64,000 nt of DNA. It comes from Ignavibacteria bacterium. Lineage in GTDB: Bacteria; Elusimicrobiota; Endomicrobiia; PHAN01. The stretch is from assembly GCA_041694835.1 (NCBI GenBank), contig JBGFRZ010000032.1:12544-76543 (forward strand), given 5' to 3'. Below, in pieces: positions 57,001 to 60,000 of the stretch. A program made the position numbers. Each line of letters opens with the position of its first letter. Positions within the stretch are counted from its first letter, which is position 1.

Positions 57001-60000
57001 TTTGCCCACCATGCGTATGTCCTGCAAGTACTAATTCAATCCTATGTCTATCTGCTTGCTTGATTATTACTGGAGAATGAGATAACAATATCTTAAAGTC
57101 ATCTTTTGGTATTCCGTCAATTGCCCTCGACAAATTATCTCGCCCACTAAATGGGTCGTCCACTCCGACGAGCCAGATATTTTCTTGTCTTATTTTTATC
57201 TTTTGATTCTTATTGTTTAGAAATACAACATCCGATTCAACATCTATTTTTTCCATGTCAGTTGGTGTCAGATGCAAATGGTCATAGTTGCCCCAGACGC
57301 CCCACTTTCCGTACTTCGCTCTGAATTTATTGATTAGTTGAATGCAGTCATCCAATGCTTTGCGTGTATTGACAAAATCACCGGTAACGACGAGGATGTC
57401 GGGATTTATTTCGTTTACAGCATCAAGCAATTTTTCTTCTCGTGCCCCGAGCTTTTCTAAATGCAAGTCAGAAAGATGTACTATTGAAAGTCCATTCAAC
57501 GCTTCGCTCAATCCATTGATTCTAATATCGATTTTGCTAACTTCCATTCTATTGGTCTCAATATAGAGTATATAGATGAAAAAAGGAACGCCGAATATTA
57601 GAAATATTTTCCACACTAATCTGTGTTGAACAGACATCTTTTTTAACATTCAATCTAAATCCCCCCTCACCCCCTTTTATTAAAGAAGGGATTGAAGGAT
57701 GATTTCATTTCCACACCCCGGGGATTTTATGCTTGCAAAATTTACATTTTCCATTTTCCATATCGTTACTTAAAACCGAGAAGTGAACTCTATGGATTAG
57801 TAGTTTGTCGCATCGAGGACAGAAAGTAGAGTTATATTTGTGTCCCGGGACATTGCCGATATAAACATATTGCAATCCTACTTCGTGAGCAATCTCTATC
57901 GCGCGCTCTAATGTCTTGACCGGCGTTGCCAGAAGATGAGTCAGTTTATATGCGGGATGAAAACGGCTGAAGTGCACGGGCACATCTTTTCCTAAATTAT
58001 CTCTTATCCATACGCACATCTTTTTTATCTCCTCAGGGTCATCGTTGAGTGTGGGAATGACGAGGTAGACAATTTCAAAGAAAGCGCCTTCTTCTTTCAA
58101 AACCTTAAGAGTTTTTAGCACCGGCTCAAGTTCTCCTGAGCATATTTCCCTGTAAAATTTTTCTGTGAACGCTTTAAGGTCAATTTTTACCGCACTTAAA
58201 TAAGGAAGAAGTTTTTTTAATGGCTCAGGATTAATATAGCCGTTTGAGACGATAGATGTTTTAAGTCCTTTTGCTTTGGCTACTTTGGAGATTTCATAAA
58301 TATACTCATAAAAAACAGTGGGTTCGGTATAGGTAAAGGAGATGGAGTCAACCCCAAGCCTCAATGCTTCTTTAACTATTTCTTCAGGAGATAGAGCATA
58401 TTCTCGCACTTCTCCCGGGCCCGCCTGTGAGATTTGCCAGTTGTGGCAGTTTTTACACTTTAAGTTGCAACTCACTGTAGCCAGGCAAAGCCGTTTATGT
58501 CCTGGAACAAAATGATATAAAGGCGCTTTCTCAATCGGCCCTATATCTACTGAGCAGGGTTTGCCATAAACTAATGAATATAATTTTCCTTGCCAATTTT
58601 CTCTTACTCGGCACAATCCCCTTTTTCCTTCAGAGATAATACATTTTCGAGGGCAGAGTTGACACCATACTTTGTTATCGTCTAACTTTTGGTAAAACAT
58701 CGCCTCTTTCAAATCCCTCTTGTCCGCTCTTAAATCAGCAGATATTAAAGAAAACAAAAATATTATTAACCCTATTTTTCTCATGCTCATCTTTATCTTA
58801 TCAGCCACCAGTAGCCACGAATATCCAGATTGGTCAGTCCCGATTCTTTTGCTTTCTTTACAACTCTTTCATATTCTTCTGAAGTTATTCTTCGGGATAT
58901 TTCGGGATAGTCATATGCTTTATATTGCGGGTTATATTGTGCCATAATGTTGACATAAGTATCATTGGGTAAATTTTTGGCAATCCATTCTATAACTTCT
59001 TCAGAACCGCTGACGGCATTTGGCATAACCAAAACACGAATCATCAGACCTCTGTATATGACACCATCTTTGGCGGGTTTCGCTACGCCAACCTGACGAT
59101 TCATCTCAAGGATTGCTTTTTTTGTATCGTCGGGATAACTCTTTGCACCAGCTGAATATTTTGCCGCAAGTTCACTGTCCCAGTATTTAAAGTCAGGTAG
59201 ATAAATGTCTACAACTCCGTCAAGAATTTTAAGAATTTCCATGCACTCCCATCCTGATGTATTATATACAACGGGCAGACGCAAACCTCTTGATGCGGCG
59301 ATATCAAGGGCTTTTAGAATGTGGGCGGTGTAGTGCGTGGGTGTGACGAGATTTATATTATGACAACCGATTTTCTGCAGATGTATCATCATATCAGCCA
59401 ACTCGTTGATACTTTTCACAGAACCTCTGCCGCGATGACTTATGTCCCAATTTTGGCAGAATAAACATCTGAGATTACAGTGTGCGAAAAATATCGTCCC
59501 TGAACCGCCTCTTCCCACCAATGGTCTTTCTTCGCCAAAATGTGGATGGACTGAAGAAATTACAAGTTCAGTGCCGCGGGAGCGGCAAAATCCCGTCTGC
59601 CCTTTCAGACGGTCAACTTGACATTTCCTCGGACAAAGCCGACATTTTTTCATTATATCCCACAATTTTTCAGCACGTCTTTTTAATTCGCCTGTCCGAT
59701 GAAGTTCCAAATAAACTGGTTCAAACTTAGCGTCTTTATCGGCAGATTTTTCAACCACGGTTTTTCTCCTTGTCTGACTGTGCTGGGCCCGCAGTCCCAT
59801 ATATAATGATACGCTTATAATCGTAAGTCCTAATACTGTTTTTAAAACCACACTTCGTTTCATAGAGATACATGGACTTCTATTAATTTAATTTTAACAA
59901 ATTCTTTAATCCATTTTTGTGCTTGGAGTCATTTTCGTAATTTCAGAAAAATATTTGTCGGCTACAATAATAAAACTACTCAATTTTAGTAATACAACCA

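Follow-up and report, generated by a model that had tools for sequence, protein, structure and literature searches.

On balance, we favour reading this locus as a Sec-routed form of an exported AmmeMemoRadiSam system, in which a radical SAM enzyme (AmrS) and its partners would pass the inner membrane unfolded and be supplied with cluster, SAM and electrons on its outer face. Radical SAM Fe-S enzymes normally function inside the cell. If true, the reading would overturn the assumption that radical SAM chemistry is confined to the cytoplasm, and also the assumption that Fe-S proteins of the periplasm must acquire their cluster inside and leave folded through Tat. The features considered lie in the window, the whole 64,000-nt stretch of DNA analysed:

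55987..56700, minus strand: SagB/nitroreductase-fold flavoprotein with N-terminal signal or anchor (TIGR03605)
56813..57649, minus strand: metallophosphoesterase with N-terminal membrane helix (PF00149), in the operon
57705..58808, minus strand: AmrS radical SAM enzyme, ORF from GTG, PFL-activase-like fold (TIGR04337)
57735..57821, minus strand: C-terminal CxxC...CxxC motif of AmrS; first Cys invariant, the other three at least 90% conserved
58446..58469, minus strand: CxxxCxxC radical SAM cluster motif of AmrS (CNLKCKNC), invariant in 122/122 aligned sequences
58611..58664, minus strand: N-terminal four-cysteine motif of AmrS (CxxCPxxC...C), invariant in 122/122
58725..58790, minus strand: predicted Sec-type signal peptide of AmrS (sequence, leader anatomy, relatives' leaders)
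58793..59863, minus strand: second radical SAM enzyme, motif CNLRCLFC (PF04055)
59786..59863, minus strand: predicted Sec-type signal peptide or N-in anchor of the second radical SAM enzyme (homologues' leaders)
59906..62230, minus strand: 14-helix MFS-like membrane protein (774 aa) with a spermidine-synthase-fold, SAM-binding domain at residues 224-544 (NF037959 above cut-off; AF2 pLDDT 88)

The AmrS enzyme and its leader

AmrS scored above the curated cut-off (TIGR04337, 366.6 bits against 220). Its probable start is the ATG at 58790 or 58784, directly past the stop of the upstream gene, rather than the GTG at 58808. The N-terminus then reads MSMRK-IGLIIFLFSLISA-DLRA/DK, where the slash marks the predicted cleavage site, with MSMRK as the n-region and a 13-residue uncharged core. 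By pattern, this resembles a Sec/SPase I substrate in its basic n-region, short hydrophobic core and small residues at -3 and -1, and the leader is probably cleaved after LRA. Basic residues flank the site (LRA/DKR), making the c-region atypical for such a substrate; basic residues in this position are described as a Sec-avoiding feature in the available part of PMC10924467. Leaders of the closest relatives are Sec-type in L012 (78% identity) and Tat-type in L005 (67%). The first-pass annotation had allowed that the N-termini might be anchors facing the cytoplasm, which is unlikely for this AmrS because the uncharged stretch is just 13 residues long.

The catalytic cysteines are all invariant, and the CxxxCxxC, QN, DPxEK and TY..EP residues are equally conserved in Sec-type and Tat-type sequences. 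The N-terminal four-cysteine motif is probably a second metal site, whose metal identity we infer, and the C-terminal motif a probable zinc ribbon. CxxxCxxC and a partial barrel place the protein in the radical SAM superfamily; the AF2 model (pLDDT 97.8) has PFL-AE as its nearest solved fold (3cb8, E 1.8e-15). An exotoxin A-like domain at residues 47-118 appeared with a single sequence (E 4e-7), but the family profile gave E 0.95 and the listed fold matches lacked it, and we read it as a single-sequence coincidence.

Leader-bearing proteins in the genome

The genome encodes four AmrS copies. Besides the window copy on contig C28, leaders are present on those of C66 (MKK-IGLIIFLLLLSANL-EA/ER) and C70 (MK-LLLFVFISLLVFSPLIFS/TE), and the C20 copy begins MKEALYY without one. 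The AmrA and AmrB partners are two AmrB-AmrA fusions, neither of which adjoins the window AmrS. One (C24:16814-18301) has the leader MINK-ISLITIFLIFSMNKLAVA/RD and keeps its RGCIG, DxRF and Memo His motifs intact; in the other, on C27, a ribosome-binding site precedes MSEIR and no leader follows from that start. The N-termini on C28, C66, C70 and C24 agree with the first-pass annotation, which had placed export signals on three of four AmrS paralogues, a neighbouring radical SAM protein and one AmrB-AmrA protein, and had described the cytoplasmic AmrS as lacking the extension.

That neighbouring protein, which we take to be PflX-like, reached merely 37 bits with TIGR04337, and its homologues are annotated at source as 'putative pyruvate formate lyase activating enzyme'. 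The pairing of Tat and Sec leaders recurs in this second family, with 87 Tat-type, 23 Sec-type and 10 unclassified or degenerate N-termini among the best 120 homologues. The twin-arginine motif is absent from all five leaders in the genome, and no RR-type leader was found among its 1555 ORFs. As a control for chance, 46 ORFs with Fe-S-type Cys motifs were put through a filter for a hydrophobic N-terminus; the four that passed were the three AmrS and an ORF extended too far upstream, and the PflX-like protein fell marginally short.

Tat status and leader types among relatives

Profile searches of the genome (97.2% complete; six candidates scored each) gave no match to TatC or TatA, against matches to both in 11 of 14 control genomes; the first-pass annotation had likewise reported no TatC. 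Sec-type AmrS and missing TatC are shared by 25 further genomes (86-100% complete). Across the phylum, Sec-type AmrS occurs in 26 genomes without TatC and seven with it, and Tat-type AmrS only in two TatC-positive genomes. Among the closest 80 GTDB loci, 75 have RRxFL leaders, three Sec-type and two none, classes being assigned by pattern and hydropathy rather than by a trained signal-peptide predictor; in the 50 of these tested, TatC was present in 43 of 47 Tat-type and none of three Sec-type genomes. To say that Tat loss forces a Sec signal would be too strong: TatC is present in 7 of the 33 Sec-type genomes of the phylum, and Tat loss is thus not the sole cause.

On a FastTree phylogeny with weak backbone support, leader-bearing AmrS sequences cluster (support 0.94-0.97), with Tat and Sec types interleaved through at least about nine changes; at least four ordinary leaderless sequences also sit inside this clade. 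Sequence comparison supports the view that leaders mark an exported branch of AmrS in three forms: with a Tat signal, with a Sec signal, or split, with a separate Tat mini-protein. The subfamily proposed earlier does hold both twin-arginine and Sec-type N-termini, but 'at least 4' twin-arginine members was an undercount, given the 75 of 80 above.

The split form is a signal-less sub-branch: a twin-arginine mini-ORF follows downstream of the enzyme in 38 of its 47 loci, with none seen at the other nine, compared with 1 of 167 controls. The spacing between enzyme and mini-ORF varies between -20 and +394 nt with every frame represented, and a frameshifted fusion was rejected. The carrier peptide has 40-75 residues and is predicted to bind the split AmrS (score 0.62 against 0.01 for the best control; 116 of 157 solved pairs attained the mark for this score, as did 2 of 215 mismatched ones). 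Runs share at least 89% of contacts, with a partner pLDDT of 50-55. We had expected the mini-protein to stand in for the first strand that the enzyme lacks, but the model put it elsewhere. Gly-ending carrier peptides dock in the predicted active-site groove of the model, a hint that a C-terminal glycine may be modified. No recurrent Gly-ending partner was found near unsplit AmrS, so the idea of this substrate comes from the split forms only.

Neighbouring genes

The 774-aa gene lies upstream of the radical SAM genes and adjoins AmrS in 28 of 80 loci. Its putative MFS-like character is suggested by 14 helices with alternating charge, by NF037959 (fused MFS/spermidine synthase) above cut-off and by a weak MFS_1 match in one relative; the top Foldseek matches listed span the soluble domain only. 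This domain has a SpeE fold (Foldseek 1uir, TM 0.75 to target) and sits between two six-helix bundles; from the charge alternation over 81 sequences, it is predicted to face outward. Like SpeE it keeps the ELD and DG adenosyl-binding motifs, whereas it has GGAGG and VGxxEP at the sites where the genome's own SpeE shows GGGEG and SDLPTP. In spermidine synthase, an acidic residue in the glycine loop and a catalytic Asp after the fourth strand have functional roles. The 774-aa gene has neither, GGAGG and VGxxEP being the commonest forms in the 81 aligned rows, some of which retain VNxPDP, and it falls below the equivalog cut-offs for spermidine synthase (TIGR00417, 121.6 of 249.6 bits; NF002010, 122.4 of 260; NF002956, 171.7 of 472). 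From motifs and modelled topology, we regard the protein as a candidate supplier of SAM on the outer face and, in concrete terms, as a possible SAM exporter in bacteria. It is not specific to AmrS: 25 of 84 phylum genomes without exported AmrS encode it, beside signal-bearing beta-CASP hydrolases or Ig-repeat proteins, and in G091 it stands next to a PflX-like gene without a leader.

A CcdA-type thiol carrier adjoins Sec-type AmrS in 13 of 27 loci but Tat-type AmrS in 1 of 75. Within the phylum, DsbD_2/CcdA is present in 34 of the 35 genomes whose AmrS bears a leader, compared with 18 of the 84 that have no such copy. The link lies mostly within one phylum and appears also at two Tat-type loci (L005, G094). 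In the present genome, this carrier and a YdjY-like CxxC partner are both on contig C5. The SagB-fold flavoprotein adjoins 5 of 22 Sec-type and none of 75 Tat-type loci; its motif DG[IV][ST][GS]AT, found in 6/6 aligned sequences, resembles the ApbE flavinylation site, and ApbE is encoded in the genome. On this motif it is a candidate electron carrier on the outside.

The metallophosphoesterase was rejected as part of the system, having a homologue in none of 80 related loci. DUF362 accompanies Tat-type loci. A neighbour of the C66 copy considered as FMN_bind had no Pfam match and a weak RnfG match only. Among the neighbours scanned there was no glycyl-radical enzyme and no recurrent translocase-like gene. 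The genome's two NifS-like proteins and IscU carry no leader, and no exported Fe-S scaffold or assembly protein was recognised in it.

Proposed mechanism

Leaders and comparative genomics argue strongly for export of AmrS, the PflX-like enzyme and AmrB-AmrA to the far side of the inner membrane, a step that, taken alone, we consider highly probable. Without Tat, and given the known properties of Sec and Tat, they would pass through Sec unfolded and cluster-free. Sec-type signals in the absence of an export route for folded proteins imply that active enzymes would need clusters built outside the cytoplasm. The 7-11 conserved cysteines could be kept reduced there by the CcdA-type membrane thiol carrier and its YdjY-like CxxC partner, and [4Fe-4S] would be loaded in the anoxic periplasm, either spontaneously or with the aid of an unrecognised helper, the weakest step of the scheme. 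Topology, motifs and fusions suggest that SAM is delivered to the outer face, or displayed there, by the MFS-like protein and that the exported flavoprotein gives the electron. The PFL-activase-like AmrS may then abstract hydrogen from a peptide or protein, most likely maturing AmrB-AmrA or an envelope protein after export, which is a tentative guess from fold and operon. Somewhat more doubtful still is the fullest version, in which Sec-exported apo-enzymes form active periplasmic [4Fe-4S] clusters, served by the CcdA relay, an MFS-fold SAM exporter and a flavinylated carrier, and modify the C-terminal glycine of a peptide or protein.

Of the periplasmic radical SAM chemistry proposed in the first-pass annotation, export is thus supported by three leader forms, charge bias and outward-facing partners, but the chemistry is something we infer. 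How SAM and Fe-S would reach the enzyme had been left unexplained; there are now candidates for SAM and electrons, but no cluster-assembly machinery was identified. Counting against the Sec reading, the available part of PMC10924467 has Fe-S cofactors inserted in the cytoplasm and such proteins needing Tat. A literature search that covered few subscription journals returned no account of radical SAM enzymes that are exported, nor of Fe-S proteins that leave through Sec.

Alternative explanations

The exported proteins might never gain a catalytic cluster and, in apo or zinc-loaded form, serve in binding or structure, leaving radical chemistry to the cytoplasmic paralogue. A leaderless AmrS and AmrB-AmrA pair is indeed kept in this genome, most phylum genomes with an exported AmrS also retain a cytoplasmic copy, and the lack of a recognised exported assembly protein fits. 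We nevertheless think this unlikely, since the catalytic residues are as conserved in Sec-type as in Tat-type sequences, SAM-binding and electron-carrying partners remain linked, and a 1.9-Mb genome keeps three paralogues and a second radical SAM family. Slightly less likely again are N-out/C-in anchors or non-functional leaders, with enzymes acting on the cytoplasmic face and perhaps modifying partners before export, as anaerobic sulfatase maturases do. The problem of Fe-S loading would then disappear; over 19 residues, 23 of 43 Sec-type leaders have the hydrophobicity needed to span the membrane as uncleaved anchors, leaderless members occur within the clade, and the window leader has a basic c-region. 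Yet 41 of the 43 show an N-in/C-out charge bias (a positive n-region and no larger positive charge past the core), the window and C66 leaders have merely 13-14 uncharged residues, and the intact twin-arginine signals of close relatives, like the separate Tat peptide of the split forms, would be superfluous for a cytoplasmic enzyme.

Cluster assembly would also stay cytoplasmic if the enzymes folded there and left by an unrecognised route, either a very divergent Tat or a translocase reading RR-less hydrophobic leaders. The Sec-looking leaders of seven TatC-positive genomes and the unusual carrier peptide of the split form lend this some appeal, but with empty TatC and TatA profiles, not one RR-type leader in the genome, leaders that resemble ordinary Sec leaders and no recurrent translocase-like gene among the neighbours scanned, we consider it improbable. 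Least credible by far is an artefact, in which either tatAC was lost only from the draft assembly (89 contigs) or the leaders are repeat DNA or upstream sequence wrongly called as part of the gene. The same combination recurs in the 25 further genomes, and the leaders lack twin arginines regardless. The only in-frame start between leader and domain is the Met of KEAMF, use of which would remove the conserved first strand, and the leaders show no 7- or 8-base periodicity, so heptamer-repeat DNA was rejected.

Relation to known systems

The preferred Sec-routed reading departs from the known AmmeMemoRadiSam system, whose three domains all score above curated cut-offs here (TIGR04335 AmrA, TIGR04336 AmrB, TIGR04337 AmrS), in the leaders on AmrS and AmrB-AmrA and in the extra MFS/SpeE-fold protein, CcdA-type carrier and flavoprotein. 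The gene association was described, and RNA base modification proposed, in PMC2034487, where a term search of the available part found neither 'signal peptide' nor 'secreted'. A periplasmic location would fit that proposal poorly for the exported branch. Humans have homologues of the A and B domains of the AMMECR1/Memo system. The Sec forms are a natural experiment: between close relatives the leader is the main difference (L005, Tat-type, is 67% identical to the window AmrS), so that export route and cluster loading are directly testable.

PFL-AE (PDB 3cb8/3c8f) is closest to AmrS in solved fold and sequence, sharing the partial barrel with CxxxCxxC, but identity is 19%, and AmrS has in addition a cysteine domain at either end and a leader. 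Tat-type and split relatives agree with the export of Fe-S proteins and hitchhiking subunits described for hydrogenases and formate dehydrogenases (PMC10924467, available part): folding and loading in the cytoplasm, folded export, and a signal-less subunit riding on a signal-bearing one. The window proteins, by contrast, have no twin arginines in a genome without Tat, and the carrier in split relatives is a peptide rather than a redox subunit. In cytochrome c maturation system II, CcdA/ResA acts after Sec export. The parallel lies in a cofactor protein that crosses the membrane unfolded and whose cysteines a CcdA-type carrier keeps reduced; an Fe-S cluster would take the place of haem here, and the loci have neither a CxxCH substrate nor a haem channel. 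Outward electron transfer in DsbD-type and NapH-like flavinylation systems runs through FMN_bind and NapH-like modules; a term search of the available part of the source (PMC8238504) gave no partner that is a radical SAM, AMMECR1 or Memo protein. The MFS-like protein is fused to FMN_bind and NapH-like domains in two genomes.

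Operon and leaders

The locus is a real feature, a variant of the already known AmmeMemoRadiSam system. AmrS, the radical SAM enzyme of that system, is encoded in an operon of a 1.9-Mb genome (the window is contig C28, positions 12544-76543), given here in operon order:

59906-62230, minus strand: MFS-like membrane protein of 774 residues with an inserted SpeE-fold (SAM-binding) domain, first gene
58793-59863, minus strand: PflX-like radical SAM protein, here RS2
57705-58808, minus strand: AmrS (TIGR04337, 366.6 bits; cut-off 220)
56813-57649, minus strand: metallophosphoesterase
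55987-56748, minus strand: SagB-like flavoprotein, last gene

Two bases past the RS2 stop the sequence reads ATG AGC ATG AGA AAA, and because of this ATG AGC ATG the AmrS start is probably 58790 or 58784. Downstream of the operon, at 53649-54566, is a gene of the histone-deacetylase family; the same family directly precedes a Sec-type AmrS in locus L180 (Pfam match), and histone-deacetylase-like genes, judged from similar N-termini, directly precede Sec-type AmrS in L181-L182.

Leaders were classed as Tat-type (twin-arginine) or Sec-type (basic-hydrophobic without twin arginines) by our own sequence patterns and hydropathy, not a trained predictor, with 6 of 177 sequences corrected by eye. The first-pass annotation had claimed export leaders in a genome lacking TatC, and both parts hold: three of four AmrS proteins, RS2 and one of two AmrB-AmrA fusions carry Sec-type leaders, and a profile search of the genome gave no TatC match. 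Searches for TatC and TatA, which were positive in 11 of 14 control genomes, found neither in this genome (97.2% complete). An RRxF pattern is present in one of 1555 ORFs of at least 150 residues, and that ORF lacks a hydrophobic region; a six-frame scan returned two short RR-like strings, one 20 and the other 47 residues long. A filter for a hydrophobic N-terminus, applied to 46 ORFs with Fe-S-type cysteine motifs, let through four: the three AmrS and an over-extended ORF.

The leader DNA shows no 7- or 8-base periodicity. Between the AmrS paralogues of the window (58693-58785) and contig C66 (38027-38116), two members of different sub-branches, it is 78% identical over 93 nt, which suggests that a leader was copied between them. 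A 32-base piece of signal-peptide DNA (58715-58746) recurs with 31 identities at C24:16737-16768. This copy lies some 65 nt before the exported AmrB-AmrA gene and is joined to a sequence that we take for part of a type I methyltransferase gene; it may be left over from an AmrS gene that once preceded AmrB-AmrA, or reflect an assembly join.

A probable exported clade

An AmrS subfamily with either twin-arginine or Sec N-termini had also been proposed, and the two types do interleave in one tree group. A FastTree analysis of 177 AmrS sequences placed every leader-bearing one except L065 in a single group (support 0.94), which persisted after enlargement by 76 sequences (0.97) and then also held split forms, in which AmrS lacks its own signal and a separate mini-gene is usually present, and at least four ordinary leaderless sequences. 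The enlarged tree requires at least 9 Tat/Sec changes versus a shuffled mean of 35.5, a rough number because backbone support is weak. Neighbours of the window AmrS are L012 (Sec, 78%), L005 (Tat, 67%) and L006/L007 (Tat). RS2 has 87 Tat-type and 23 Sec-type relatives among its best 120 homologues, and 22 of the latter, RS2 included, make up one branch. Judged from sequence, the AmrS leaders belong to an exported clade.

The best 80 of 520 confirmed GTDB AmrS loci comprise 75 with a twin-arginine leader, 3 Sec-type and 2 with none; for 50 of the 80, TatC was found in the genomes (completeness not stated) of 43/47 Tat-type and 0/3 Sec-type loci. AmrS scored above the cut-off in 50 of 121 sampled genomes of the same phylum, judged to be Elusimicrobiota, and the N-terminus was read for every such match. 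Of the genomes with Sec-type AmrS, 26 gave no TatC and 7 did; Tat-type AmrS is found in two genomes and split AmrS in two, all of these with TatC, and leaderless AmrS alone in 13. Tat-type AmrS therefore needs TatC, and absence of TatC is not required for the Sec-type, although the counts are not independent because the genomes are related.

In L065 (4418-6964; Spirochaetales) a single gene of 846 codons encodes, in frame, a Sec-type leader followed by AmrS and AmrB-AmrA-like sequence; it branches outside the main exported clade.

Split AmrS and twin-arginine mini-proteins

Two phylum members inside the exported clade, G009 and G070, have AmrS without a leader, a case able to contradict export. 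A metagenome search brought up an entire sub-branch whose sequences begin at the first cysteine motif; its loci include a Sec-signal AmrB-AmrA in 35/57 and an MFS-like gene in 18/57. Directly downstream of split AmrS, 38 of the 47 loci with enough sequence (10 with too short a flank were left out) have an ORF of 40-75 residues that carries a twin-arginine signal, versus 1 of 167 unsplit controls. A second mini-ORF, upstream in 23/54, combines a membrane helix with the enzyme's missing first-strand motif.

For the predicted complex of split AmrS with its Tat mini-protein the score is 0.62 (runs 0.62, 0.38 and 0.71; best control 0.01). The set mark was reached by 116/157 solved and 2/215 mismatched pairs, counts that are only approximate for the alignments used here, and split-gene halves tend to pass. 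Runs agree in at least 89% of contacts, with a partner pLDDT of 50-55, and since a PDB search gave no AmrS structure, the model is unlikely to have reproduced a solved complex. Enrichment and predicted complex together therefore argue that export is retained even with the signal detached.

In the model the mini-protein's last residues lie against the invariant DPxEKKP, QN and TY residues, not in the first-strand slot. Of 38 twin-arginine mini-proteins, 33 end in Gly (L209:9113-9268, L208:3769-3921, loci L217-L295). Modelled docking and Gly endings hint at a substrate with glycine at its C-terminus, in line with PFL-AE chemistry; the mini-protein, modelled into the active-site groove, is possibly a substrate or a plug. 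No recurrent Gly-ending partner was found beside unsplit AmrS. In three related genomes (L150, L155, L165) a protein of about 107 residues ending in YAG, presumably CutA-like, precedes a leaderless cytoplasmic AmrS.

Enzyme integrity and proposed cluster loading

All 122 aligned AmrS sequences share CxxxCxxC and four N-terminal cysteines, and a further four cysteines near the C-terminus are at least 90% conserved; Sec-type sequences keep these residues as well as Tat-type ones do. With a structure model of pLDDT 97.8, closest in fold to PFL-activating enzyme, the window AmrS looks intact, and the exported AmrB-AmrA retains the RGCIG, DxRF and Memo His motifs. In the cytoplasmic AmrS (C20:4358-5212, 284 residues) the C-terminal cysteine domain is missing, and several orthologues in the phylum, with about 290 residues, are without it too. 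Kinship of AmrS residues 47-118 (58455-58670) with the exotoxin A family was rejected: the alignment is gapless (best E 4e-7) and the family profile gives no support.

A DsbD_2/CcdA-type membrane thiol carrier, whose helices 1 and 4 carry cysteines, is encoded no more than 1.5 kb from 13/27 Sec-type loci, and within 5 kb of 5/22 wider Sec-type, 1/75 Tat-type and 0/57 split loci; the count is partly circular, six of the nine sequences in the profile coming from such Sec-type loci. A Pfam search independently gives adjacent coordinates for DsbD_2 and Sec-type AmrS, and DsbD_2 is found in 34/35 phylum genomes with leader-bearing AmrS versus 18/84 without. DUF362 shows the opposite pattern (34/75 Tat-type, 0/22 Sec-type). 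The link may be a lineage trait, because two Tat-type loci also have CcdA. The genome's own copy, on contig C5, is paired with a membrane-anchored YdjY-like CxxC protein (L195:167-1538) whose homologues adjoin AmrS in four other genomes; a literature search turned up no described function for YdjY. Cytochrome c maturation is the model for keeping cysteines of an exported apo-protein reduced, and by analogy such a carrier would fit the need of a many-cysteine apo-protein after Sec export.

A motif search recognised no exported cysteine desulfurase or scaffold in the genome, and its two NifS-like proteins and IscU lack leaders. In one locus a CcdA-like gene and three tandem Sec-type AmrS genes are preceded, at a distance of about 2 kb, by genes for an ABC ATPase and a SufBD-family protein (L012:941-2880).

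Location, activity and alternatives

The enzymes would cross the membrane unfolded via Sec, have their cysteines kept reduced outside and gain their cluster there. With exported SAM they would then modify a peptide or protein, probably working together with exported AmrB-AmrA. We regard the exported location as highly probable, and location and activity together as somewhat better than an even bet. Enzymes that are exported yet cluster-free are unlikely. According to PMC10924467, Fe-S cofactors are inserted in the cytoplasm, which calls for export by Tat. Fe-S loading after Sec export, if shown to be true, would be new in kind; a literature search, with subscription journals mostly outside its scope, found no publication that deals with the export of radical SAM enzymes or with Fe-S proteins leaving through Sec. 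PMC2034487, as far as seen, describes an AMMECR1-dioxygenase-radical SAM association with proposed RNA base modification, and that portion does not mention export.

Leaders acting as inward-facing anchors are a slightly poorer prospect. As many as 23/43 Sec-type leaders could be uncleaved anchors, but 41/43 have a positive n-region and 41/43 no larger positive charge after the core, a bias that therefore indicates N-in/C-out whether cleaved or not. The window and C66 leaders, with uncharged stretches of only 13-14 residues, are by their sequence too short for a stable anchor. An unrecognised route for folded proteins is improbable. Basic residues around the cleavage site of the window AmrS, a Sec-avoidance feature in the part of PMC10924467 seen, count against Sec export; net charge over the 15 residues past that site is zero. 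An artefact would be very surprising.

Candidate SAM and electron partners

The 774-residue protein has 14 predicted helices, with limits set by hand from the structure model, and across 81 homologues Lys+Arg per loop is 1.5-3.8 inside and 0-1.1 outside, which would therefore place the SpeE-fold domain (224-544) outside. The acidic residues at the two SpeE motifs have a catalytic role; because it lacks those that the genome's own SpeE has, the protein probably binds SAM without making spermidine. Its type adjoins AmrS in 28 of the best 80 GTDB loci. Among phylum genomes, 33/35 of those that have leader-bearing AmrS encode it, yet so do 25/84 of those without.

The counterparts of this protein in G009 and G070 are fusions with FMN_bind and NapH-like domains, a module serving outward electron transfer according to the portion of PMC8238504 seen. 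A signal-bearing flavodoxin (phylum genome G105) and a rhodanese lipoprotein (C66) lie near Sec-type AmrS, and the genome encodes ApbE. SagB-like flavoproteins near Sec-type AmrS have an SGAT-like flavinylation motif in 6/6 aligned sequences, a motif that PMC8238504, in the same portion, warns is not stringent. At L196:3461-5017, L197, L198 and L199, all in genomes without exported AmrS, the next gene after the MFS/SpeE-fold gene encodes a beta-CASP metallo-beta-lactamase protein with a Sec-type leader.
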